From the NCBI GenBank assembly GCA_026415775.1, contig JAOAGL010000001.1:334233-398232 (forward strand): 64,000 nucleotides of DNA, given 5' to 3'. A model generated the notes under the pieces. That model ran no database searches, had not been told where the DNA came from, and saw nothing but the letters and a program-made list of their open reading frames with translations. The translations under genes and the position numbers were made by a program. This DNA is from Patescibacteria group bacterium (GTDB lineage Bacteria > Patescibacteriota > Minisyncoccia > UBA6257 > JAAZHW01). Below, in pieces: positions 13,176-64,000 of this stretch (positions are counted from its first letter, which is position 1; each line of letters begins with the position of its first letter).

Positions 13176-16322
<3,147 letters not shown>

Positions 16323-16359: not shown

Positions 16360-16477
16360 TTCTCGGTGATTTAGCCCATTGTGTACCACCTCTTCCCATT
16401 CCGAACAGAGAAGTGAAAGCAATGGGCGCCGATGGTACTCACCCGAACACGGTGGGAAGAGTAGGCTTCGCCGAGAA
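16360..16477 (+). rRNA. rrf: 5S ribosomal RNA
   Basis: CTTCTCGGTG...CCACCTCTTCCCATTCCGAACAGAGAAGTGAAAG...GCGCCGATGGTACT...CGCCGAGAA has conserved 5S loop motifs and terminal helix I. Confidence 0.85.
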
Positions 16478-18413: not shown

Positions 18414-19049
18414 ATGCTTGAATATCATACTTTAGCGATTGTTGTCAAAAAAGAACTAATCAATGAAACCGACGCTAATGTTGTTTTGTATACAAAAGAA
18501 CTGGGTAAATTGGAAATCATAGCCAAAGGCGTTAAAAAACTTCTTTCTAAATTTGGTGGACACCTCGAACCGCTTAATTTAATTGAGGCAACGATTATCG
18601 CGGTTAATCATAAACATCTAACGAGCGTTTTAACACACAATAATTTTTTTCATATTCGAAAAAATTACACCAGATTAGAAAATGCTCTAAGAATGATGGC
18701 GATATTTAATGAGGCAATTGTTTCTTCAGAAAAAGACAATTTTCTTTGGGAAAACATTCTTAATTATTTAAACAAACTTAATCAAGCAGCCGTTTTTTCA
18801 GAAGAAAAAGAAAGCGCTTTTATTCAATTGTTAAATCTTGAATTTTTAATTAAATTGGGCAGGGGTTTAGGTTTATTGCCTGATAATCAAGAATTAAAGG
18901 AGCACTTTGATAATTCAACAGCTTCAATAATTGTTTTTTTAACTCAAAATCCCCCTGAAAAAATTATTAATCAATATGACATATCAAAATTGCAAAAAAT
19001 CGATTATAATAAAATAGAGAAGTCAATTAAACAAAAAATTATTATTTGA
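18414..19049 (+). CDS. recO: DNA repair protein RecO-like
   Basis: 211 aa; N-terminal OB-fold pattern ...AIVVKKELINETDANVVLYTKELGKLEIIAKGVKK... resembles RecO. Confidence 0.55.
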   Translation: MLEYHTLAIVVKKELINETDANVVLYTKELGKLEIIAKGVKKLLSKFGGHLEPLNLIEATIIAVNHKHLTSVLTHNNFFHIRKNYTRLENALRMMAIFNEAIVSSEKDNFLWENILNYLNKLNQAAVFSEEKESAFIQLLNLEFLIKLGRGLGLLPDNQELKEHFDNSTASIIVFLTQNPPEKIINQYDISKLQKIDYNKIEKSIKQKIII

Positions 19050-19050
19050 T

Positions 19051-20961
19051 ATGGCTCTAAAAGATATCGAGGAAAAACTTTATAAAATGAAAGAGGGGAG
19101 TCCGCTTGAAGAGGAAGAAACCCCATCTTTTAAAAAAGAAAAAATAGAAACAACAGAAATAATTTCCGAAAAACCCTCTTTCAAAATAGAAGTAAAACCC
19201 AAACGACCGCCTATTAATTTTTATCAAAAATCTGGTAAAAAAAACGCAATTTTTTATGTTGTGATTGGAATTCTTTTTGCGGCGTTATTGTTTGAAGGAT
19301 ATCTTTTGGCTCAAAAACTTTCTTCTCAAAAAACCGGAATTCAAATTAATATTAATAGCACCGATAATGTTTTATTAGGGCAGGTTTTTCCATTAGACGT
19401 TGTTTATAAAAATGATTCAGCAAATTTATTGCAGAATACTTCTCTCATTGTTGAACTGCCCAATAATATAAAAATTTTAGGATCAGAAAATAATGGGCAA
19501 ATTTTTAGAAAAGAATTAGGTGATTTGGGGACTGGAAGCAATAATGTTGAGCGTCTATATTTAGTGGCGATGGGAACGCCTAATCGCATTGATACTATTA
19601 AGGCTACATTGCAGTATAATATAGTTGGTTTTAGCGGTAGATTTGAAAAATCGAAAATCCAAACAATTACAATAGGAGGCCCTATTATAGATTACAATTT
19701 ATCCGTGCCGGAAAAAATTGTAAGCGGTGAAGAATTCACTATAAAAGTTAATTTTAAAAATAATTCTAATCAAACAATCCCGGAATTGCGACTCCAACTT
19801 TATTATCCCCTAGGTTTTAATTTTACTAATTCTGATATTGCTTCAGCGGAAGGAAATAATTTATGGATTTGGGGTAATTTGCAACCTTATCAAAGCGGAG
19901 AAATTAATATTAGGGGAATAATTATCGGCGAGGTGGGAAGCTATTATGAGATAGGAATGGATGCCAGTTTGATTTCCCAAAATCAACCAGTTGTTTTTGA
20001 TAAAAAAACTACTTCTTTAAGTATTTTAGAGGCGCCGTTGAATGTTGCAATTTATGTTAATAATAGCAGGGATTATATTGCGCGAAATGGCGAGTCTTTG
20101 GAATATCGCATTGATTACCAGAATAATACTGAAATTGCTTTAAGTGAAGTAATTATAAAAGCAGAGTTGGAGGGCGCTATGTTTAATTATCAGAGCATTG
20201 CGACTAATGGTTATTTTGATTCATTGAAAAAACAAATTATTTGGAATGCTGGTAATACACCGGGTTTGAAATTATTAGACAGAGGAAAAGGAGGATCAGT
20301 AACTTTTAAAGTTTTTACTACCTCAGATTATCCCGCCAGAAGTTTCAAGGATAAAGAACAAACACTTAAAGTAAAAGTTACAGTGGAGTCCCCATCTGTT
20401 CCGCCAAAAAGCAATTTAACTAGTACGACTGCTGTAGCACAAATAATAACTAAGATTTTGGGTCGAGTTGATTTTCAGTATTACGCTTTATTTAGAGATG
20501 CTGCCTCAGGAATTGTTAATAAAGGAAGTTTGCCGTTAAAAGTTGGTAAAACTACCAATTTTACTATTCACTGGAAAATTATTAATTATAATAATGATTT
20601 AAGTGAGGTAACTATCAAAACAATTCTACCGCAAGGTATAGCTTGGACAAATGTTATTGCTGGTAATTATGGCGATTTAAAACCTGAATATAATGAAAGA
20701 ACGGGCGAATTAGTTTGGCGCATAAAAGAAATTCCAGCTTTTTCAGGAGTTTTAATGCCGCCTTATGAATTAATTTTCCAAATTGCTGCTACACCATCTC
20801 TTAACCAAGTAGGTAGTTATATGGAATTGATTAAAGAAACAACTTTTACTGCCACGGATAAATTTACGGGTCAGTCAATAAATTTAAAAACTAATATTCT
20901 TACTTCCGAACTGCGTTCTGATCCTACGGTGAAATATGGAGAGGGCCAGGTACAATATTAA
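19051..20961 (+). CDS. Large membrane-anchored extracellular protein (single N-terminal TM, repeated beta-rich domains; DUF11/CARDB-like guess)
   Basis: 636 aa; TM helix at about residues 65-87; remainder N/T/S-rich with repeated units of about 100 aa; adjacent to a pilin-like gene. Confidence 0.5.
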   Translation: MALKDIEEKLYKMKEGSPLEEEETPSFKKEKIETTEIISEKPSFKIEVKPKRPPINFYQKSGKKNAIFYVVIGILFAALLFEGYLLAQKLSSQKTGIQININSTDNVLLGQVFPLDVVYKNDSANLLQNTSLIVELPNNIKILGSENNGQIFRKELGDLGTGSNNVERLYLVAMGTPNRIDTIKATLQYNIVGFSGRFEKSKIQTITIGGPIIDYNLSVPEKIVSGEEFTIKVNFKNNSNQTIPELRLQLYYPLGFNFTNSDIASAEGNNLWIWGNLQPYQSGEINIRGIIIGEVGSYYEIGMDASLISQNQPVVFDKKTTSLSILEAPLNVAIYVNNSRDYIARNGESLEYRIDYQNNTEIALSEVIIKAELEGAMFNYQSIATNGYFDSLKKQIIWNAGNTPGLKLLDRGKGGSVTFKVFTTSDYPARSFKDKEQTLKVKVTVESPSVPPKSNLTSTTAVAQIITKILGRVDFQYYALFRDAASGIVNKGSLPLKVGKTTNFTIHWKIINYNNDLSEVTIKTILPQGIAWTNVIAGNYGDLKPEYNERTGELVWRIKEIPAFSGVLMPPYELIFQIAATPSLNQVGSYMELIKETTFTATDKFTGQSINLKTNILTSELRSDPTVKYGEGQVQY

Positions 20962-20972
20962 AAGCTAATGTT

Positions 20973-22208
20973 TTGTTTATGTCTTTTATTAAGTTATCTG
21001 GTAAAATTTCTCCCTCTTTTACTCTTATTGAATTATTAATTGTTATCGCTATTCTCGCTGTTTTAATGTCTGTTATTGTTATAACGATTAATCCTACCGA
21101 GATGCTAAAACGCACTCGTGATGTTAGACGTCTTTCTGATTTAAAAACTCTTAATTCAGCTTTATCTGTTTACTCAGCCTCTAATCCCGATGGTTTTTTC
21201 GGGAATCTCAACACTGTCTATATCTCTATTCCAGATTCTTCACCAACTTGTGCTAATTTAGGTTTACCAGCTTTACCAACTGGTTGGTCTTATGCTTGTT
21301 CAAATTCTACTAATTATCGTAAGACAGATGGTGCTGGCTGGATACCCATTAACCTTAAAAACCTGGATATTGGTTCACCAATTTCAGCCCTTCCAATCGA
21401 TCCTATTAACTCAACAACTTCTGGTCAATATTATACTTATGTGGTGGGAGGAAGTTGGGAGTTAAATGCTATTTTGGAATCAGATAAATATCGTAATGAT
21501 AAAACACTTACTAAACAAAATTTTCCTGGTGTTCTTTCTTTTGGTTCCAATATCAACCTTTCACCTATATTTAACAATTCAGGTTTAGTAGGATATTGGT
21601 CTTTTGATGAAGGAAGTGACACTATTGCTTATGATTATTCGGGCAATAATAATCATGGAACTTTATATAATGGTCCTCAATGGGTTAATGGTAAAATCGG
21701 CAAAGCCTTAAGTTTTGATGGGATGGATGATTATGTGGATTGTGGCACTAGTACAGTTTTTGATATGAACACAAATGATTTTACTATTGCAGTTTGGGCA
21801 AGGGCTATTAGTGGTATTTCACGTAGAGGTATTATTAATAAAGGAGGGTGGTCTGGGTCTGTAAAGGGGTATGCTATCCAACAGGCCTATACCCCCGCTA
21901 ATAAATATTATTTTGTGGTTATGGATGATACAGGCTATAAAGGCGTTCCTACTTCTCTTTTGGAGACTTGGGATTGGAGTTTTATAGTTGGTAAGAAAAC
22001 AACTAATCATATTGAAGTTTGGACAAACGGCATGAATTCTAGTGCTTATGATACTACTATTAATTCTTTAAGTAATCCTATTAAACCATTCGAAATTGGA
22101 AAAAGTGCAACAACTGAGTTTTTCAATGGTTTAATTGACGAAGTTCGAATTTACAATCGCGCTCTTTCTGAAGCTGAAATTAAGGCTTTATATAATGCTA
22201 CAAAGTAA
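20973..22208 (+). CDS. Type IV pilin-like protein with C-terminal LamG / concanavalin A-like lectin domain
   Basis: N-terminal prepilin-like segment SFTLIELLIVIAILAVL; C-terminal ...LIDEVRIYNRALSEAEIKALYN is a typical ending of LamG_3-type domains. Confidence 0.6.
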   Translation: MFMSFIKLSGKISPSFTLIELLIVIAILAVLMSVIVITINPTEMLKRTRDVRRLSDLKTLNSALSVYSASNPDGFFGNLNTVYISIPDSSPTCANLGLPALPTGWSYACSNSTNYRKTDGAGWIPINLKNLDIGSPISALPIDPINSTTSGQYYTYVVGGSWELNAILESDKYRNDKTLTKQNFPGVLSFGSNINLSPIFNNSGLVGYWSFDEGSDTIAYDYSGNNNHGTLYNGPQWVNGKIGKALSFDGMDDYVDCGTSTVFDMNTNDFTIAVWARAISGISRRGIINKGGWSGSVKGYAIQQAYTPANKYYFVVMDDTGYKGVPTSLLETWDWSFIVGKKTTNHIEVWTNGMNSSAYDTTINSLSNPIKPFEIGKSATTEFFNGLIDEVRIYNRALSEAEIKALYNATK

Positions 22209-25846: not shown

Positions 25847-25910
25847 GGAGATGGGAGAAAATCCCATTCAATAGATCTTTTAAAAATAAAAAAAGAAGGA
25901 GGTGAAAATA

Positions 25911-28751
25911 ATGAAAGCAAAACCTGGTTTTAATGAAAAGGATTTTAGGAAAAAATTTAAATTGTGGGAGAATGGCGAGGTCGGATTGAAACATTTTACT
26001 TCCGATGAAAGAGCAGAATTGTTGGAAACTGGTTACATCACTCAAGAACAATTTATTGAGTTGATGCCGGAAAAACTTCAAGAATACTGGCGGGCAATTA
26101 GTGAATTGCTTAGCAAAAAAAGGGTTTTTCGGAATACTGACGCAGCCACTGCCTTGCCGCTTGGTTTAAAAGGCAGGTACCAACGCTTGAATATGTCTCG
26201 CGGTATTTTAATGAAGTTCAAAGAGTGGGGGATGCTGGAGACAATTCGTATTGGTGCTCATAATGTTTACTTTTCAACTGCTCCTGGCTTCTATACTCAA
26301 GATGAAATTTTAAAGCTGATTCCAAAAGAATATCAGAAAAACGTTTTGCAATTATTTGCTGATGATTGGACATCGATTCAAGAGGTAGCTAATTTGTTGA
26401 ATTTATCCTCGCGATTTCTGGAAGAAATTTTGGATGCTTTTGTAAAAAGGGGGTTGTTGGTTAAAGGGAAAGGCGGCTATCGTCGTTCGCAAGCGTTGAA
26501 AGAGGCGGGTGTTAGTGTTGAATCCCTTGAGGCTTTAGATTTAGTTCAGGCGCATAATTTACTGATGCAGGAAAAAGAACGCAAAGCAGCTACCCAAAAG
26601 ATTACCAGTTTGAAAGAAATAAAAGAAGTGGTTGAAAGAGATATTCGCCATAAGAGTGTTAAAATGCTTCAAGAAGAAATCAATGAAGAATCGGCGCGTT
26701 TAAGCTTTATTGGTGAAGTGCGCTTCGGCAATCAATTTGTAGATGTAGAACTGGTAGAATGGGCAATAAATATACTGAAAGAATATTTTAAACCTCATGT
26801 TATTATTGCTTCTGACTTTGTTCAGGGCGATTTCCGCGGAATTCAAGTTGAAAGACTGCGCTCTTTGACAAGGACGGGTCTTCAGCGGATAGAGCAGCAA
26901 TATTCTGCAGCCAATTTGTTGTTAAAAGAACTAGAAAAAATTGCCAAAAACAAGGTTGTCTATCTTTTGTCTGATGATGATTGGCAGGTTTCTTTGTCCC
27001 GAGTGATTATTGCCCTAGAACAATTCCGAGGCATTAGAGGATTGGGTATTGGTAGTCGTTGGCCAGAAGAAATAAAACGTCTTTCTGGTGCAGACTACTA
27101 TCGTTTAATGAAAATCCAGTGGGAAACAGTTCAGCCTTATATGTATCGAATCGGTCGCTCCCTTCTTAATGCCGATGAAGTAAAAAAGGTTATTGGTGAT
27201 CATATTACTGAACTCTTGGTGATTATTTTTATTTTGCTGTTCGAAGAGTTTAATAAGCCGATCCCTGAAAAGTATAAAAAGTTGGTTGATGTTGAAGCTC
27301 TTCATAGCGATAAACCGGGTTCTAAAAGAATCATTAGTCCTGATCCCATCAATCTCTATCTGAAAAATATCCAAAAAAGAATTCTTGCTCAGCATAATAT
27401 TGCCTTCTCAGACATTACGCAGTACGTGGATAGCGGATTGATTCCAGAATGGATTTTGCGCAATCTTCAAGCTCGCGGTCGAGAAACGCCTTACATTTGG
27501 GTTGATTTCCACCAAGAAAGATTTTGGGGTACTAAGTTGTACAATACTTTCATTTTTAATTTACCCGGCTGTCAGAATCCTTTACCAGCTGCTGAAGGAA
27601 AAATCAAAACTTTTCACACAAAAATTCTTTCAGATAAAGCCCATCGACAAATCTATTTCCGAAAAGAACCACCAACGCCTGGTGTTGTAAACTTTGAAAT
27701 TTTCAAAGATGGTCGGCTGCGCATCCATGTTCTTAACAACAAAATCAAAGATGTTATTGAGAAAGAAAAGGATGAACCAGAGAAAAAAGATTTACTTGCC
27801 TACACTTCAGATTGGCAGTTTGGTTCTTTAACTATGAGACCCGAATGGGTGATAAAATTCCTGGACTATGCTCTTTTTAGTAGACGAGCGACTAATTTGG
27901 CGCTCAATGGTGACCTCATTCAGGGTTTTCATTATCCGAGGTTCGTTTCTGAAAACAGACCAAAAAGACTAGTGTCCGTAAGCAGCCAGAAGGCATTTAC
28001 TACCACGTTGCTCAAACCATTTTTCCCAGCGCCTAATCTTGAAACTATTGATGTTTTGTTGGGGAATCATGAATGGGAAATTTGGGGAGCAGACATTACT
28101 GGACAGAATAATCTCGAATTCATCTTCTTTGTTCTTAAAGAAATATACGAAAACCAAAAGTTATTTAAAGCTGATCTCAAAGTACCTGATATTAAAATTT
28201 GGAATAGAGTTAGAATTGTTAAAACTGCTGGGAGACATGGTTCAACAATCAACCATCCATATGGTAGCAGAGTGCTCAAGTCAAACTACAAGATTGCTAT
28301 TCAACATCAGTGGTATCCGCGTGGCGGCGGAAGAACACCAATGCATTCTCAAATAACTTGGTTAAGAAACATTGCTCAAGCTGCTTCTGATTTACATGTT
28401 CTTTTTGGTGGGCACAAACATACTTTTTGGATTGCGATGATTGCTGAAATTTTGATGTTGCAACTTCCTGGTCTGAATGACCAATCAGCTTTTGAATTTG
28501 CCCGTGGCCTGATGCCTCAGTCAATGGGTTGTCTGGTAGAATTTTCCAACAAAAGCGGCGTTACCATTGAATTAATCCCTGTTGAATTTCTAGAAGAATA
28601 TAAATGCATCTCTCCGTTCTACAAAGAAATAGATGAGAAAGGACTTCTTGATCGTCCAAAACCAGGAAGTGTTGAATACAGATATGGCCTAGATTCTCCA
28701 TTCATTCACCAATTAGAAGAACAAATTGACGCCGAATATCCAGAAGTGTAA
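25911..28751 (+). CDS. Large (946 aa) multidomain hypothetical protein, compositionally foreign; winged-helix-like region plus C-terminal calcineurin-like metallophosphoesterase-like motifs
   Basis: Uninterrupted ORF with a strong Shine-Dalgarno-like sequence. GC is about 45 percent against about 30 percent in flanking DNA, and codon usage is distinct (CTG, CGC, GCC). Motifs SDWQFG...NGDLIQG...GNHE...GGHKH are phosphoesterase-like. Confidence 0.7.
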   Translation: MKAKPGFNEKDFRKKFKLWENGEVGLKHFTSDERAELLETGYITQEQFIELMPEKLQEYWRAISELLSKKRVFRNTDAATALPLGLKGRYQRLNMSRGILMKFKEWGMLETIRIGAHNVYFSTAPGFYTQDEILKLIPKEYQKNVLQLFADDWTSIQEVANLLNLSSRFLEEILDAFVKRGLLVKGKGGYRRSQALKEAGVSVESLEALDLVQAHNLLMQEKERKAATQKITSLKEIKEVVERDIRHKSVKMLQEEINEESARLSFIGEVRFGNQFVDVELVEWAINILKEYFKPHVIIASDFVQGDFRGIQVERLRSLTRTGLQRIEQQYSAANLLLKELEKIAKNKVVYLLSDDDWQVSLSRVIIALEQFRGIRGLGIGSRWPEEIKRLSGADYYRLMKIQWETVQPYMYRIGRSLLNADEVKKVIGDHITELLVIIFILLFEEFNKPIPEKYKKLVDVEALHSDKPGSKRIISPDPINLYLKNIQKRILAQHNIAFSDITQYVDSGLIPEWILRNLQARGRETPYIWVDFHQERFWGTKLYNTFIFNLPGCQNPLPAAEGKIKTFHTKILSDKAHRQIYFRKEPPTPGVVNFEIFKDGRLRIHVLNNKIKDVIEKEKDEPEKKDLLAYTSDWQFGSLTMRPEWVIKFLDYALFSRRATNLALNGDLIQGFHYPRFVSENRPKRLVSVSSQKAFTTTLLKPFFPAPNLETIDVLLGNHEWEIWGADITGQNNLEFIFFVLKEIYENQKLFKADLKVPDIKIWNRVRIVKTAGRHGSTINHPYGSRVLKSNYKIAIQHQWYPRGGGRTPMHSQITWLRNIAQAASDLHVLFGGHKHTFWIAMIAEILMLQLPGLNDQSAFEFARGLMPQSMGCLVEFSNKSGVTIELIPVEFLEEYKCISPFYKEIDEKGLLDRPKPGSVEYRYGLDSPFIHQLEEQIDAEYPEV

Positions 28752-33964: not shown

Positions 33965-35995
33965 TTATTCTTTATTTTTTTCTAATTGGGATTCTGGTTT
34001 TGTCCAGGAAGCATAGTTACATTCGGGATAGCGAGAACACCCATAAAAAATCCTTCCTTTCTTTGTTTTTCGTATTACAATATAACCATCATTACACTTC
34101 GGACATTTTAGTTCAGTGAGGTGATTATTATTATTCATTAAACTTTTGGTATTTTTGCACTTGGGAAAATTAGAGCAAGCCAGAAATTTACCATAACGGC
34201 CGTATTTAATTACCATTTCAGCACCGCACAATTCGCATTTTTCATTTGTTTTTTCTTCAATAGTATTTTTAGCTACTTCAATATATTTTTTGTCGAGGTT
34301 TTCTTTAAAAGGAAGGTAAAATTCGCGTATAACATCTTGCCAGTTAATTTTTCCATCGGCAATTTTATCCAAATCTTCTTCAATTTTTGCAGTAAAACCA
34401 ATATCAATAATTTGGGGAAAATGCTGAGTAAGTATATCATCAACTAATATGCCGATTTCTGTTGGTATAAATTTTTTATTTTCATCTAACTCAACGTATC
34501 GTCTTTCTTTTAGGATGGAGATGATTGTGGCATAAGTTGAAGGGCGGCCAATACCATAATCTTCTAGTGTTTTAATCAAACTAGCTTCGGAATAGCGAGG
34601 AGGGGGTTCGGTGAAATGTTGAAGAGGAACAACTTTTTTAACTAATAATTTTTGATTTTCTTGAAGTGGGGGCAATTCATTTTCTTCAAATTTTATCGGA
34701 TAAACTTTTAAAAAACCATCAAAAATTAATTGACTGCCGATAGTTTTAAGGAAAAAAACATCATCATCGTTTTTCGCTTTTATATCAATCAATAATTTTT
34801 TAATTTGAGCCGGCGCCATTTGAGAAGCAATAAATCGTTGCCAAATTAAAGTGTAAAGTTTATAAAGTTTATTATCAACCCTACCTTTAATTTTTTCTGG
34901 TAAAATATTGGGGTCGGTGGGGCGAATAGCTTCGTGAGCTTCTTGAGCGAGGCGAGATTTATTAATAAATTGACGACGATTGTAATATTTTTCCGAGAAT
35001 TGATTTATTATTACTTCTTTGGCTTTATTTAATGACTCCTCTGATAAATTAACGGAGTCAGTCCTCATATAAGTAATTAAACCTGTTGGTCCTTTACCAA
35101 AATCAATTCCTTCGTAAAGCTTTTGAGCTAAAAGCATTGTTTGTTTGGCTGAGAAATGAAGTTTTTTCCAGGCCTCTTGTTGGAGGGTGCTAGTAATGAA
35201 AGGTGGTAGAGGATTTTTTTGGGTTAATTTTTCTTCAATTTTATTTATAATAAAATCTGCCTTTTTCAGTTTATCAACAATTTCTTCAGCATCTTTTTGT
35301 TTTTTTATATCGAATTTACCCAAAACCTTTTCATTAATTTTATAAAGATGGGCACAAAAGCATTTTTTGCTGCCGGTTAGAAAATCAGCTGAAATTGTCC
35401 AATATTCTTCTGGTTGAAATTTTTTGCGTTCATTTTCTCGCTCAACAATTAAATGCAAGGCTGCTGATTGAACTCGTCCAGCAGATAAACCATGAAAAAT
35501 TTTTTTCCAAAGAAAAGGGGAGAGAAGGTAACCGACTAAACGATCTAAAATTCTTCTGGCTTGTTGAGAAAAAACTAGATTCATATTGATATCACGAGGA
35601 TTAAGCAAGGCATTTTTAATAGCTGATTCAGTAATTTCGTGAAAAGCGATACGTTTAATATTTTTATCAGATAAATTATTGTTTAATAAAGTTTCTTTTA
35701 AATGCCAGGCAATGGCTTCTCCTTCACGGTCTTCATCGGTAGCCAGAATAATTTCAGAGCTTTTTTCAGCTATTTTTTTTAATTTCGTTAATTGTTTTTG
35801 ATTTTTTCGAATAATGATATATTGTGGCTTAAAATCATTTTCTATATCAATGCCTAATTTTGATTTTGGCAAATCCCTTACATGGCCATAAGACGCCTCA
35901 ACAAAATAATCAACCGTTAAAAAGCGGCTAATAGTTTTTGCTTTGGTCGGAGACTCTACAATGACTAAATTTTTCTTTTTATTTTTAACAGGCAT
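33965..35995 (-). CDS. topA: DNA topoisomerase I with C-terminal zinc ribbons
   Basis: 676 aa; TOPRIM N-terminus LVIVESPTKAKTI; active-site Tyr region; C-terminal CxxC...CxxC pairs. Confidence 0.9.
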   Translation of the reverse strand: MPVKNKKKNLVIVESPTKAKTISRFLTVDYFVEASYGHVRDLPKSKLGIDIENDFKPQYIIIRKNQKQLTKLKKIAEKSSEIILATDEDREGEAIAWHLKETLLNNNLSDKNIKRIAFHEITESAIKNALLNPRDINMNLVFSQQARRILDRLVGYLLSPFLWKKIFHGLSAGRVQSAALHLIVERENERKKFQPEEYWTISADFLTGSKKCFCAHLYKINEKVLGKFDIKKQKDAEEIVDKLKKADFIINKIEEKLTQKNPLPPFITSTLQQEAWKKLHFSAKQTMLLAQKLYEGIDFGKGPTGLITYMRTDSVNLSEESLNKAKEVIINQFSEKYYNRRQFINKSRLAQEAHEAIRPTDPNILPEKIKGRVDNKLYKLYTLIWQRFIASQMAPAQIKKLLIDIKAKNDDDVFFLKTIGSQLIFDGFLKVYPIKFEENELPPLQENQKLLVKKVVPLQHFTEPPPRYSEASLIKTLEDYGIGRPSTYATIISILKERRYVELDENKKFIPTEIGILVDDILTQHFPQIIDIGFTAKIEEDLDKIADGKINWQDVIREFYLPFKENLDKKYIEVAKNTIEEKTNEKCELCGAEMVIKYGRYGKFLACSNFPKCKNTKSLMNNNNHLTELKCPKCNDGYIVIRKTKKGRIFYGCSRYPECNYASWTKPESQLEKNKE

Positions 35996-36004
35996 ATTTA
36001 AAAT

Positions 36005-37123
36005 TTAAAACTTCACTTGATATCCGCCCATATCCCACTTAATTAAATTTTTTAATTCCAACAGTGTAATAATTTGATTAACGACGCCAGTATCAAATTC
36101 GGAAATTTTTATAATATCATCAATAGAAAGGGGGGATTCTGATTTCTTTATAATATCCAATATTTTCTTTTCTTCAACAGTTAAATTATTAAATAATGTT
36201 TTTGTTTTTTCAAAATCAATGTTTAGGGTTAAATTCTTTGCAATATTCAATTCATCTAAAATATCTCCGATGTTATGAACTAATTTGGCGCCCGATTTAA
36301 TTAATTGATGATTGCCTTCATAATTCTGGGAAAAAATTGATCCGGGGACGGCGAAAACTTCTCGATTTTGTTCTAGGGCAAAACGAGCCGTAATGAGAGA
36401 GCCAGATTTTAATGGAGCTTCAATCACAATAGTTCCAAGAGCTAAACCGCTAATAATTCTATTGCGAGCTGGGAAATGATGTTTAAGCGGCGGAGTTGAA
36501 AGAGGATATTCCGAAATTAAAGCTCCACTTTTAACAATTCTTTCGGATAATTTTCTATTTGCAGAAGGAAAAATGATGTCCAATCCCGATCCTAATACGG
36601 CAATAGTTTGTCCTTTGTTTTCTAATGTAGTTTGATGACAAATAGTATCAATTCCATAAGCTAATCCGCTAACAGTAATAAATCCACATTCTACTAATTC
36701 TTTTGTAATTTTTTCCGCAACCATTTTTCCATAATTAGTAGCTTTGCGCGTTCCCACAATTGCTATTATTGGTTTATTATTAAAATCAAATTCGCCAAAA
36801 ATATAAATTCCTAAAGGTGGTTCGGCGATTTCTTTTAATAAAGAGGGGTATTCTTTTTCTTCTAATAAAATCAATTTATACTCCCCATCTTCTAATTTTT
36901 CCCATTCTTTTTGAGGATTAATTTTTTGTTTGTTTTGGTAAAAATTCTGGATAGTTTCTAAAGAAAATTTTGGGTAATAATTTAGAAAATCATTATAATC
37001 ATCAACAAACCAGATTTTTTCAAAAGATTTATAAAAATTCTTTAGTTTGCTCAGTAGATTATAATTGCAGGCGCTGGCTAGATTTAAGGCATTGAAATAA
37101 ATTTTTTCCTTCAAATTTTGCAT
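36005..37123 (-). CDS. dprA: DNA processing protein DprA (Smf)
   Basis: IAIVGTRKATNYGKMVAEKIT...VSGLAYGIDTICH is the Rossmann-like DprA core; conserved smf-topA arrangement. Confidence 0.85.
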   Translation of the reverse strand: MQNLKEKIYFNALNLASACNYNLLSKLKNFYKSFEKIWFVDDYNDFLNYYPKFSLETIQNFYQNKQKINPQKEWEKLEDGEYKLILLEEKEYPSLLKEIAEPPLGIYIFGEFDFNNKPIIAIVGTRKATNYGKMVAEKITKELVECGFITVSGLAYGIDTICHQTTLENKGQTIAVLGSGLDIIFPSANRKLSERIVKSGALISEYPLSTPPLKHHFPARNRIISGLALGTIVIEAPLKSGSLITARFALEQNREVFAVPGSIFSQNYEGNHQLIKSGAKLVHNIGDILDELNIAKNLTLNIDFEKTKTLFNNLTVEEKKILDIIKKSESPLSIDDIIKISEFDTGVVNQIITLLELKNLIKWDMGGYQVKF

Positions 37124-58882: not shown

Positions 58883-60058
58883 ATGCGTACTTCCTATTCT
58901 AATTTAGAAATATTTGAAAATTGTCCAAAACGTTATGAATTTCAAGTAATTGAAAAAATTAAAACCCCTCAAAGCAAGGAGCAATTTTTAGGTACCATTT
59001 TACATAAATGCCTAGCTTTTCTTTACAAAAGGGCCCCTCTATTTCCCCACCTCGATGAATTGCTTGATTATTTTAAAACGCAATGGAAGGAGGCAGAAAA
59101 ATTTAAATGGCGTGATAACTATGAAAAAGAGGCCTACTTTAAAGAAGGTTTAAGAGTTTTAGAAAATTTTTACAAAAAAAATATCCCCTCTTTTGCTATT
59201 CCAATGGACTTGGAAAGTTATTTTGAAACCGAAATTGAAGATGAAGCAAATAATACCATCCACATTTTAACGGGTCGTATTGATCGCATCGATAAAAAAG
59301 AAGATGAAACATTTGAGATTATTGATTATAAAACAAATAAAAAAATGCCAGCCGAAGCAAATTTAAAAAATAATTTACAGCTAGCAGTTTATATTTTGGG
59401 TTTTTTAAAAAAATGGCCAAATTTAACCTCAATCGACAAAATTAACCTCACCCTCTATTATTTAAAACACGGCGAAAAACTTACAGGCAAAAAAAATGAA
59501 GAAGATATTTTACTAACCAAAAAGCGCGTTCTCAAAAATATTCATGAAATTGAAAAAAACTACTTCCCCCCTATTCCTTCTAAATTATGTCATTCCTGTC
59601 CCTATCGAAAGATTTGTCCGATGTGGTCACATTTATATCAAAAAGAAAAGACACCCGAAGAGACAGAAATAAAAAAATTAATTACTGAATATTTTAAATT
59701 AAAAGAAGAGGTTGATAATAATAAAGCTAAGTTAGAAGAAATTAAAAAACAGATTAATCATTATGCTCAAGAAAAAAATTTAGAAAGAATTTTCGGCGAT
59801 GAAGGCTTCTTTTCTTATCAAATACAACAAATTAAAGAATATGATAACGAACAATTAAAAAACCTTTTGATTAAAACAGGTTTATGGACAGAAGTTTCTA
59901 TGCTAGACAAGAAAAAGTTGGAGAAATTGCTAAAAAAAATAGATTCTTCCCTACTTCAACAAATTGAACAATTACAAAAAATAAAAAATCGCAAAATTTT
60001 GAAAGCTATTAAGAAAGACATTGAAATAATAAAAAGCACGCTTAATGAAGAAGAATAA
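58883..60058 (+). CDS. Cas4-like / RecB-family PD-(D/E)XK nuclease with Fe-S cysteines and C-terminal coiled-coil extension
   Basis: GRIDRID...FEIIDYKTNK is the D...EhhDYKT nuclease core; QLAVY motif; Cys ligands C14 plus CHSCPYRKICP (C-x2-C-x5-C). Confidence 0.6.
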   Translation: MRTSYSNLEIFENCPKRYEFQVIEKIKTPQSKEQFLGTILHKCLAFLYKRAPLFPHLDELLDYFKTQWKEAEKFKWRDNYEKEAYFKEGLRVLENFYKKNIPSFAIPMDLESYFETEIEDEANNTIHILTGRIDRIDKKEDETFEIIDYKTNKKMPAEANLKNNLQLAVYILGFLKKWPNLTSIDKINLTLYYLKHGEKLTGKKNEEDILLTKKRVLKNIHEIEKNYFPPIPSKLCHSCPYRKICPMWSHLYQKEKTPEETEIKKLITEYFKLKEEVDNNKAKLEEIKKQINHYAQEKNLERIFGDEGFFSYQIQQIKEYDNEQLKNLLIKTGLWTEVSMLDKKKLEKLLKKIDSSLLQQIEQLQKIKNRKILKAIKKDIEIIKSTLNEEE

Positions 60059-62331: not shown

Positions 62332-62874
62332 TTATTTAAGCAAAAATCTTTTTAAAGGAACATAAACAGCGTGTGGTTTTTGTAAACGACTTTCCATTAG
62401 AAATATTTCATTAGTTTTAAAATGCAAAGGAAATTTAACATTTTTGAATTCTAAATGAGTTGGTTCAAATCGTGCTAAAGTAATATGTGGCTTCATTTCC
62501 CTATTTTCTTTTTGAAAATTAATCCCTGAATTACTTAATAATCTTTCAAGTTTTTGTTTAACATTTTCTAATATTTCATTTTTTTCAAAATTTAACCAAA
62601 TCATTCTGGCATAATTATTATTTGGCGCAACAGAAATATGGGTAGCATATAAATCAAGAGGAGGTGTTTGATTAAAAATTTCATCACCAATTTTTAGAAT
62701 TTGCGGCACATCTTCCATTAAAATATTACCTAAAAACAAAACGGTTAAATGAAGATTATCTTTAGGGGTGTACTTTACGTTAATGGGCAATGCAATTTCT
62801 TTTAATTTTCTTTCTATTTTATCTTTTAATGAATCAGGCAAATTAATAGCAAAAAATAATCTCAGAGTTTCCAT
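62332..62874 (-). CDS. thpR: RNA 2',3'-cyclic phosphodiesterase (2H phosphoesterase, LigT/ThpR)
   Basis: Two H-x-T/S-x motifs: NLHLTVLFLG and KPHITLARF; 180 aa. Confidence 0.75.
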   Translation of the reverse strand: METLRLFFAINLPDSLKDKIERKLKEIALPINVKYTPKDNLHLTVLFLGNILMEDVPQILKIGDEIFNQTPPLDLYATHISVAPNNNYARMIWLNFEKNEILENVKQKLERLLSNSGINFQKENREMKPHITLARFEPTHLEFKNVKFPLHFKTNEIFLMESRLQKPHAVYVPLKRFLLK

Positions 62875-62943
62875 ATTATACTATTTTAATTTTATTTTTC
62901 TTTTTTGTCCATTTTTCATTATAATAAATTATGTATGTTTTTG

Positions 62944-64000
62944 GTGTCTGTAATTCCCATTACTTATCTTCCCCGCTCTCAAAATAAGCCTCTTTCTTAT
63001 TTTTCTTTAAAAAAACTCGCTCCCCTCAGTCTCGTGTTTGTCTCTTTTGGAAATCGTAAAACAGAGGCACTTGTTATAAAGTGTGAGGAAATTAAATCAA
63101 AAATTGCAATAAAAAAAGCCGAGTTTCAAATTAAACCCATTGAAAAAATTATAAATCCTAATCCGATTATTACTCCTCAACAGTGGGAGTTATTAAAAAT
63201 GGCTTCCATTTGGTACTATAACCCCCTTTCTTCTTTGCTAAAAAATATTATTTCACCTATTCAATTGTTTGAAAATTTATCAATCAAAACACAAGAAATA
63301 AAAATAAATAATGAAGTTTCTTCAAAGCCAAAAATTATTCTAACCGATGATTTTGATTATCTTAAAAATCGCGTAAAAGAAACTTTAAATAAATCGCAGC
63401 AAGTCCTTTTTTTATTTCCTAATCAAATAAAACTCGAATTTTATTATCAAAATTTTAGTGAATTTCATGATCAAATTTTTATTTTTGAGAAAAAAGGGTC
63501 AAAAAAATTTTTTAAAAATTATCAGAAAATTAATACTAATGAAATAAAAATAATCTTTGGAAAACAATCAGCTTTATTTGCTCCTTTTAATAATTTGGGC
63601 CTTATTATTATTGTTGATGAAGATAATGATGGATTCGAAACTTTTGAAACCAAAATTCATTATAATGTCAAAAAATTAGCATTATTTTTATCGGAAAAAT
63701 ATAATATTGAAATAATTTTAATAACTTCTATTTTAAGCCTCGAAGCTTTTTTAAATATTCAAAATAAAAAATATATAACCCCTCCCTCTTTTAAATTGCT
63801 AAATGACAAAATAAATCTGTCACATATTCAATTTCAGGATTTCCACGCTAAAAAAGATGGTGTAATTCATTCAGAAACAAAAAATACTATTGAAAGAATA
63901 TTAAAAAATAATGGAAAAATTTTAATTTACAATAATCGACGCGGCCACTCCCCTGCTTTGGTTTGTGAAGAGTGCGGTTTTATATTCCAATGTCCAAATT
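62944..64000 (+). CDS. priA: PriA-like primosomal helicase homolog, N-terminally short, Walker A motif absent (partial; continues past window end; start uncertain)
   Basis: Clear PriA collinearity: IIFGKQSALFAPFNNLGLIIIVDEDND (helicase motif II region) and ILIYNNRRGHSPALVCEECGFIFQCP (PriA Cys-rich region). The position of GxGKT instead reads ILTDDFDYLKNRV. Confidence 0.55.
   Translation, partial: MSVIPITYLPRSQNKPLSYFSLKKLAPLSLVFVSFGNRKTEALVIKCEEIKSKIAIKKAEFQIKPIEKIINPNPIITPQQWELLKMASIWYYNPLSSLLKNIISPIQLFENLSIKTQEIKINNEVSSKPKIILTDDFDYLKNRVKETLNKSQQVLFLFPNQIKLEFYYQNFSEFHDQIFIFEKKGSKKFFKNYQKINTNEIKIIFGKQSALFAPFNNLGLIIIVDEDNDGFETFETKIHYNVKKLALFLSEKYNIEIILITSILSLEAFLNIQNKKYITPPSFKLLNDKINLSHIQFQDFHAKKDGVIHSETKNTIERILKNNGKILIYNNRRGHSPALVCEECGFIFQCPN

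Follow-up and report, generated by a model that had tools for sequence, protein, structure and literature searches.

The stretch of DNA analysed here, called the window in the following, comprises 64,000 nucleotides of a Patescibacteria group bacterium (assembly GCA_026415775.1, contig JAOAGL010000001.1, positions 334,233 to 398,232 of the forward strand). The 5' part of a gene for a homologue of PriA, the primosomal protein N', lies at its end. The protein keeps the DNA-binding parts of PriA, and the residues that bind and hydrolyse ATP have been lost, as judged by alignment. An initial annotation made from the window alone had described this open reading frame (ORF) as collinear with PriA, which was borne out by matches to Pfam, to an NCBIfam PriA equivalog and to PriA chains of the Protein Data Bank (PDB). 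The window ORF matched the PDB chains from residue 195 (E ~1e-23) and the NCBIfam equivalogs from about residue 146 onward. The parts of the gene that fall inside the window are as follows (all on the + strand).

62935..64000, +, priA-like gene, 5' 56% (355 of 634 codons), from ATG 62935 in a single open frame to the window end
62971..63252, +, 3'-DNA-binding domain (aa 13-106, with Y22 and K67), Pfam PF17764 PriA_3primeBD, 42-43 bits against a cut-off of 22.7, E 3e-11
63253..63330, +, short linker (aa 107-132) at the place of the winged-helix domain, no domain match, coil in the model
63337..63375, +, site of motif I (Walker A), ILTDDFDYLKNRV, aa 135-147, P-loop replaced and shortened in alignments with motif-bearing PriAs
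63412..63435, +, remnant of motif Ia, LFPNQIKL, aa 160-167, Pro retained (P162 in 97% of motif-less and 100% of canonical sequences)
63559..63585, +, motif Ib, GKQSALFAP, aa 209-217, nucleic-acid-contacting, retained by column conservation
63613..63627, +, remnant of motif II (DEEH), VDEDN, aa 227-231, only E229 kept (83% of the motif-less group), His lost
63928..63948, +, motif IV, YNNRRGH, aa 332-338, retained (N82 R92 R64 G99 in the motif-less group)
63964..63999, +, first part of the Cys-rich zinc region, with C344, C347 and C353; five more Cys past the window end

The N-termini of the homologues, MYLINVLPIAYLPRSQNK..., align with MFLVSVIPITYLPRSQNK... of the window ORF, and the start was therefore placed at ATG 62935. 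The GTG at 62944 that had been proposed as the start is in the same frame, three codons downstream. The gene extends about 839 nt past the window end and is followed by def and then fmt. It is complete at L009:8036-9940(-), where it encodes 634 amino acids (loci are numbered with L and proteins with P). Locus L009 (Logan SRR16606022) is identical in sequence to the last 6 kb of the window, and L008, from a 322-kb JGI contig (Ga0417229_000018), differs from the window at 3 positions. An identical 634-aa protein, P0157, is named 'MAG: primosomal protein N' [Patescibacteria group bacterium]' at NCBI. Its named relatives come from Minisyncoccia (71% identity), Paceibacterota (55%), Spechtbacterales and Parcubacteria.

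The def gene starts 20 bp after the priA-like gene and is overlapped by fmt. This is the classical priA-def-fmt order, and the priA-like gene heads the operon. The same order was found in the relatives L001, L007, L011 and L012, and a priA-def order is also given for Southlakia epibionticum (SEML1_0164-0166; PMC10633639). Scans for promoters and terminators at the start codon and at the operon end gave nothing over the shuffled background. The full-length protein scored 275.6 bits against TIGR00595, above the cut-off of 230.35, with a match that begins at model position 17, after motif I; it scored far below the cut-offs of the other equivalogs (NF0040xx). From its architecture, its TIGR00595 score and its synteny we conclude that the window ORF is the priA orthologue of a Patescibacteria (candidate phyla radiation, CPR) bacterium of the Paceibacteria-Minisyncoccia type.

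Domains and the ATP site of the protein

The initial annotation had counted about 85 residues ahead of the Walker A site. There are 134, and they include a complete 3'-DNA-binding domain (3'BD). The N-terminus is indeed shorter than that of the Escherichia coli protein, because the winged-helix domain is missing and nothing else. In E. coli PriA this domain occupies residues 109-181 (PMC5778457); here about 26 linker residues stand in its place and join the 3'BD to the helicase core. In an AlphaFold2 (AF2) model of the full-length protein, the linker (aa 107-132) has one 4-residue helix and otherwise coil, with the lowest blocks (66-84) of the predicted local distance difference test (pLDDT). 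The winged-helix domain is not universal among PriAs: in our sample, 21 of the 130 canonical, motif-bearing sequences have the Walker A motif at residues 133-168 and hence do not have it.

The tyrosine of the 3'-end pocket, Y22, is present in 98% of both the canonical and the motif-less sequences. It is presumably Y18 of E. coli; we equated the two from the E. coli N-terminal sequence, as no alignment spans the residue. The lysine of the pocket, K67, corresponds to E. coli K61 in a phmmer alignment to the PriA chain 8fak_H. In the motif-less family the position holds 80% Lys and 18% Arg, and one of the two residues is present in 96-98% across the groups. The roles of the pocket residues are described for E. 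coli PriA (PMC5778457).

The Cys-rich region (CRR), which is inserted in lobe 2 and holds two Zn, has all its 8 Cys in the full-length protein. It was matched by Zn_ribbon_PriA (PF18319) at aa 353-379 with 38 bits against a cut-off of 26, and the C-terminal domain (CTD) was matched by PriA_C (PF18074) at aa 534-629 with 32.9 bits against 26.9. The eight Cys are 100% conserved, with C388 at 98% in the canonical group. The helicase core gave a different result: the Pfam families DEAD, ResIII and Helicase_C had no match in the full-length 634-aa protein.

The losses are located at the ATP site. The initial annotation had reported that the Walker A motif GxTGSGKT is replaced and that DEEH has become DEDN, and both readings were confirmed, with ILTDDFDYLKNRV at the first site and VDEDN at aa 227-231. 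In the subclade of the window protein the P-loop is trimmed by about 6 further residues. Motif III reads ITSIL in place of GSATP. The arginine finger of motif VI, past the window end, is deleted, with a six-residue gap opposite GRAGRA of E. coli in the phmmer alignment to 8fak_H. The alignments show that motif I, the His of motif II, motif III and the arginine finger of motif VI are gone, i.e. the residues that would bind and hydrolyse ATP. The earlier prediction of an ATPase-inactive PriA homologue is strengthened by the full-length sequence, where motif VI is deleted and motif III lost. Judged by its catalytic motifs, the protein is not a helicase.

The AF2 model was computed with a 71-sequence alignment and reached a mean pLDDT of 91.6 and a predicted template modelling score of 0.90. 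By prediction only, the two RecA-like lobes are kept in the PriA arrangement. At the place of the P-loop the model has four residues between the strand 133-135 and the helix 140-152, and at the place of motif VI the helix 481-495 passes almost directly into the strand 499-503. When the PDB was searched with the model by Foldseek, the top match was the fork- and PriB-bound E. coli PriA 8fak_H (E 1e-45, template modelling (TM) score 0.83), followed by an E. coli PriA with the winged-helix domain deleted (6dcr, TM 0.71) and then by the Klebsiella pneumoniae PriA. Other superfamily 2 helicases (Mfd, Brr2, RecQ) ranked far below the PriA structures. We read no meaning into the resemblance of the predicted model to a DNA-bound conformation.

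The family of motif-less PriAs and selection on the gene

A profile was built from the window protein and two relatives and searched against 1.84 billion representatives, which returned 16,188 PriA relatives. GxGKT, DEEH and GRxGR are missing from nearly all of the best 150. The motif state was then classified in the pooled sequences of at least 560 aa from all searches, a sample in which relatives of the query are over-represented. Of these sequences, 220 have none of motifs I, II and VI, 130 have all three and 21 are mixed. The Walker A loss, which the initial annotation had proposed to check in relatives, is thus shared by about 220 protein clusters together with the loss of motifs II and VI. 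The conservation of the motif columns (residue and per cent) in the two groups was as follows.

Motif I: G100 T99 S100 G100 K100 T100 in motif-bearing sequences; gaps or random residues in motif-less ones
Motif Ia: P100 in motif-bearing; P97 in motif-less
Motif Ib: G99 R100 S97 F93 P99 in motif-bearing; G91 T71 R86 S54 F82 P89 in motif-less
Motif II: D100 E100 E99 H100 in motif-bearing; one Glu only (83%) in motif-less
Motif III (SAT): A99 T98 P100 in motif-bearing; lost in motif-less
Motif IV: N97 R96 G100 in motif-bearing; N82 R92 R64 G99 in motif-less
Motif V: T100 in motif-bearing; T97 in motif-less
Motif VI: G100 R100 G98 R100 in motif-bearing; no conserved residue in motif-less, with the last two columns (G-R) gapped in 97%

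It follows from the column statistics that the nucleotide-binding motifs were lost and the nucleic-acid-contacting motifs kept. The aromatic-rich loop, which contacts the fork junction in E. coli PriA (PMC5175346), is also largely kept family-wide (Y/K...P.Y).

These columns bear on whether the protein might bind or hydrolyse a nucleotide at a non-canonical site and so still be a motor. In favour of such a motor, motif II retains an acidic residue, E229 (83% conserved), and the predicted fold of the two RecA-like lobes is normal. Against this, the P-loop is replaced and in the window subclade cut to a 4-residue turn, motif VI is deleted in 97% of the family, and motif III and the His of motif II are lost. 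In E. coli a single K230R change abolishes the activity (PMC5778457). We therefore regard a motor of this kind as very unlikely.

A neighbour-joining (NJ) tree was calculated from Kimura-corrected p-distances. It placed 221 of the 222 sequences without motifs I and VI in one clade that contains no motif-bearing member, and Fitch parsimony on the tree needed only 2 state changes. Provisionally, the motif-less state has a single origin. The sister group in the tree consists of short, winged-helix-less and mostly motif-bearing PriAs, one of them named Moraniibacteriota. Because of this sister group, the data suggest an order of events in which the winged-helix domain was lost before one ancient loss of the ATP site, which was then maintained for long.

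The taxonomic breadth of the family was drawn from few named sequences. The named motif-less members include Paceibacterota/Parcubacteria, Minisyncoccia, Spechtbacteria, Falkowbacteria and some metagenome-assembled genomes (MAGs) labelled Saccharibacteria. The motif-less form is not found in all Patescibacteria, since the Peregrinibacteria PriA P0242 keeps all motifs. The motif-less forms in the Saccharibacteria-labelled MAGs are L001 (604 aa) and L004 (522 aa). The latter (L004:1264-2832, CAYGVF010000032.1) is more reduced, and its 3'BD almost directly abuts the motif Ib region. RecA lobe 1 has lost its first half in this protein, and the CRR and the CTD are still well matched.

On a further metagenome contig (L005:5772-7721, JGI Ga0208461_1001349) the priA-like gene is a 650-codon frame with 5 in-frame TGA codons that ends with TAA TAA. 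Motifs I, II and VI are missing here as well. Two of the TGAs fall in columns that are mostly Trp among the relatives, and the ORFs of the contig are much longer under translation table 4 than under table 11. We conclude from these two observations that the organism reads UGA as a sense codon (Trp-like, with Gly possible). The split ORF had been considered a pseudogene, and this was dropped because the in-frame UGA sense codons explain the split.

Whether the Walker A motif is hidden by a sequencing, assembly or frame error, as the initial annotation had considered, was examined at the window end itself. A translation of 62900-64000 in all six frames contained no GK[ST] tripeptide, and stops are abundant in the two other forward frames where they cross the Walker A site (63201-63500). 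The 634-aa ORF is intact in the JGI assembly, in the Logan assembly and in the NCBI record. L009 shows no difference from the window over 6 kb and L008 the 3 mentioned above, and the same replacement is present in homologues at 85%, 71% and 52% identity. Nothing was found in favour of an error; the six-frame scan and the independent assemblies exclude it, and its probability is practically nil.

The second suspicion had been a pseudogene decaying in a reduced genome. The loss of the catalytic motifs and of one domain would fit this, as would the small and AT-rich genome. Selection was measured with dN/dS, the ratio of non-synonymous to synonymous substitution rates, calculated by Nei-Gojobori. 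The priA-like gene gave 0.085 against the 85%-identical orthologue in L011 and 0.146 against the 72%-identical one in L012 (NCBI GCA_049720475.1). The degenerate lobe 1 alone gave 0.067. The neighbouring genes in the same comparisons gave 0.055-0.16 for def, 0.11-0.12 for fmt, 0.09-0.11 for L9 and 0.08-0.10 for thpR. This shows that purifying selection on the priA-like gene is as strong as on its housekeeping neighbours. A decaying gene is contradicted by 634 intact codons in independent assemblies, by dN/dS values that equal those of neighbouring essential genes with the degenerate lobe included, and by some 220 diverged clusters with the same architecture and invariant Cys, Tyr and Pro positions. 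The confident predicted fold also argues against decay. The data refute the pseudogene, and we leave it hardly any probability.

Other features of the window

A gene of the LigT/ThpR-type 2',5'-RNA ligase family (62332-62874, -) is the divergent upstream neighbour of the priA-like gene, at a distance of about 60 bp. The arrangement is kept in L011:5391-5933, in L012:5399-5941 and in the distant Saccharibacteria-labelled MAG L004:656-1243. The genes for TopA, DprA and RecO that had been noted in the window are present and were located at 33965-35995(-), 36005-37123(-) and 18414-19049(+), respectively. At 58883-60058(+) the window encodes a 391-aa protein of the PD-(D/E)XK nuclease family (PF12705). 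Its C-terminal Cys cluster, CHSCPYRKICPMW, resembles that of AddB/Cas4-type iron-sulfur nucleases, and its synteny is kept in L008-L012.

A 23S rRNA was matched at 13181-16321(+). The match is 3141 nt long against a model of 2925 positions, indicating about 200 nt of insertions, and no intron family of Rfam reached the gathering threshold. The 5S rRNA follows at 16361-16477(+). Since no 16S rRNA was found in the 64-kb window, the rRNA operon appears to be split.

The largest unannotated protein of the window is a 949-aa ORF with a GTG start (25902-28751, +) that had no Pfam match at E <= 1e-5. Two adjacent large ORFs at 19051-20961(+) and 20973-22208(+) matched only DUF11 and a C-terminal Laminin_G_3 (concanavalin-like) domain, respectively, and may be surface proteins.

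Probable function in restart and comparison with known PriAs

We consider it probable that the protein is a functional, ATPase-dead PriA orthologue that acts in replication restart, an ancient pseudohelicase kept by selection. In this mechanism abandoned forks would be recognised via the 3'BD and the motor-dead lobes, which may act through the retained motifs Ia, Ib, IV and V and the aromatic-rich loop. Together, the lobes, the CRR and the CTD would hold the single-stranded template of the lagging strand. The replicative helicase DnaB would then be recruited, directly or through a loader, with neither ATP hydrolysis nor duplex unwinding. Only forks whose lagging template is already single-stranded, or is made so by another helicase, would serve as substrates. 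The ATPase-dead step is the firmest part of the mechanism and the recruitment of DnaB the least supported. The initial annotation had also named a scaffold for replication restart, and this part of it is the reading we favour, on the basis of inference.

Several points weigh against this reading. The loss of the ATPase, the binding of forks and the recruitment of DnaB are all deduced from sequence and from a predicted structure. The E. coli PriA apparently has to unwind forks whose lagging strand is duplex before PriB can bind (PMC13594977), and a motorless PriA would for this reason be limited in its substrates. The window subclade departs from the family consensus at Q211 (for R), I241 (for P) and E235 (for K). 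The single origin comes from a crude NJ tree of a biased sample. A second, canonical priA, which the initial annotation had proposed to look for elsewhere in the genome, was found neither in the window nor in L008 and L009, two 20.5-kb loci overlapping the window end, a result that covers these regions only.

The same protein could also be a PriA-derived scaffold for a job other than canonical restart, with the binding of DNA structures kept and an output that is not the reloading of DnaB. Examples would be the protection or marking of stalled forks or D-loops, an origin-dependent loading of the helicase, or a partnership with RecG or a UvrD/PcrA-type helicase. In its favour, none of the catalytic motifs is left and the lobes are still under purifying selection, which indicates no more than that their surfaces matter. 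No PriB, DnaT, DnaD or loader partner was identified here, and whether PriA acts alone is listed as an open question for PriA-only bacteria (PMC5778457). However, the ancestral priA-def-fmt position and the restart determinants (3'-end pocket, CRR and CTD) are retained, and the helicase-dead precedents, priA300 and the Deinococcus radiodurans PriA, remain restart or loader proteins. We regard a different job as possible but unlikely, and a function in restart as the better explanation.

With canonical PriA (TIGR00595; 4NL4, 6DGD, 8FAK) the protein shares the 3'BD, the two-lobe core, the 8-Cys CRR, the CTD and the priA-def-fmt context. In contrast to it, motifs I, III and VI, the His of motif II and the winged-helix domain are missing. 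Its compact architecture is shared with short canonical PriAs that have no winged-helix domain (P0242 of Peregrinibacteria, 659 aa; P0006, 616 aa; SEML1_0166, 651 aa). In the short canonical PriAs, some of them from Patescibacteria, the helicase core starts about 130-170 residues from the N-terminus. Unlike the motif-less form, P0242 and P0006 keep GxGKT, DEEH and GRxGR. For SEML1_0166 of the cultivated saccharibacterium S. epibionticum, Pfam matches to DEAD, ResIII and Helicase_C are given in the supplement of PMC10633639. In the transposon sequencing (Tn-seq) data there, SEML1_0166 was called essential at the last time point, T2, and non-essential at T0 and at T1 (PMC10633639). S. epibionticum is genetically tractable and would be a possible host for swaps with motif-less orthologues.

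The functional model for a motorless PriA is provided by the E. coli variants priA300 and K230A/D, which have lost ATPase, helicase and translocase activity and can still support restart in vivo and in vitro (PMC5778457). In particular PriA K230R, encoded by priA300, is inactive in all three respects; its behaviour in vivo is nearly that of the wild type, and restart in vitro is supported (PMC5778457). The helicase activity is needed in E. coli for the PriA-PriC route, for Mu transposition and for some other tasks (PMC5778457). The K230 variants are engineered point mutants in a complete PriA that acts with PriB, DnaT and DnaC, whereas the Patescibacteria protein is natural, has been maintained for long and has lost multiple motifs.

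Among actinobacteria, the PriA of Mycobacterium tuberculosis (Rv1402) is reportedly flagged in databases for lacking helicase domains and may be a further case. M. tuberculosis PriA has been termed an essential helicase loader (PMC5694481). Searches of the available literature library for PriA in Patescibacteria or CPR returned no paper that describes a loss of the ATP site, and the one paper that mentions both concerns the unrelated UBP6 gene family.

The findings strengthen what the genetics of priA300 had suggested, namely that PriA is indispensable for recognising forks and recruiting the helicase, and not for unwinding. They also bear on whether PriA acts alone in bacteria without PriB, PriC and DnaT (PMC5778457), for which the family is a compact natural test case. 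If our reading is true, these proteins of about 630 aa, which have no winged-helix domain and for which no PriB or DnaT is expected, would be the simplest natural system for studying a possible handover of DnaB to a fork by PriA alone. On balance we lean towards the view that a large and ancient clade of Patescibacteria has long run its restart with a PriA that lacks any ATP site; unwinding would then be accessory, and ATP-independent fork recognition and helicase recruitment would be the core of PriA function. The name 'replication restart helicase PriA' given by annotation pipelines probably overstates the activity of the motif-less proteins.

As a kind, the PriA pseudohelicase had been known only from Deinococcus-Thermus. 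The D. radiodurans PriA has no ATPase or helicase activity, yet it binds forks and DnaB (PMC4504706). Like the protein described here, it is a natural PriA orthologue that has lost the Walker A Lys and gives poor matches to motifs I and II. Walker A and B are not conserved in it, and this state is conserved across Deinococcus-Thermus (PMC4504706). In Deinococcus the P-loop can still be recognised and its catalytic Lys has become Arg (PMC4504706), whereas in the Patescibacteria protein the P-loop is replaced and shortened. Beyond the changes in Deinococcus, the Patescibacteria protein has a deletion of motif VI and has neither motif III nor a winged-helix domain. The Deinococcus state was measured biochemically, and the Patescibacteria family is known from sequence and predicted structure. 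No Deinococcus sequence was among the relatives examined, and the nearest motif-bearing relatives are short PriAs of the Patescibacteria type. Both observations suggest that the ATP site was lost independently of Deinococcus. Compared with that precedent, the family would represent a second loss of the ATP site, which was independent of the first and went further, in a different lineage, in hundreds of diverged clusters of a major uncultivated radiation and under purifying selection.

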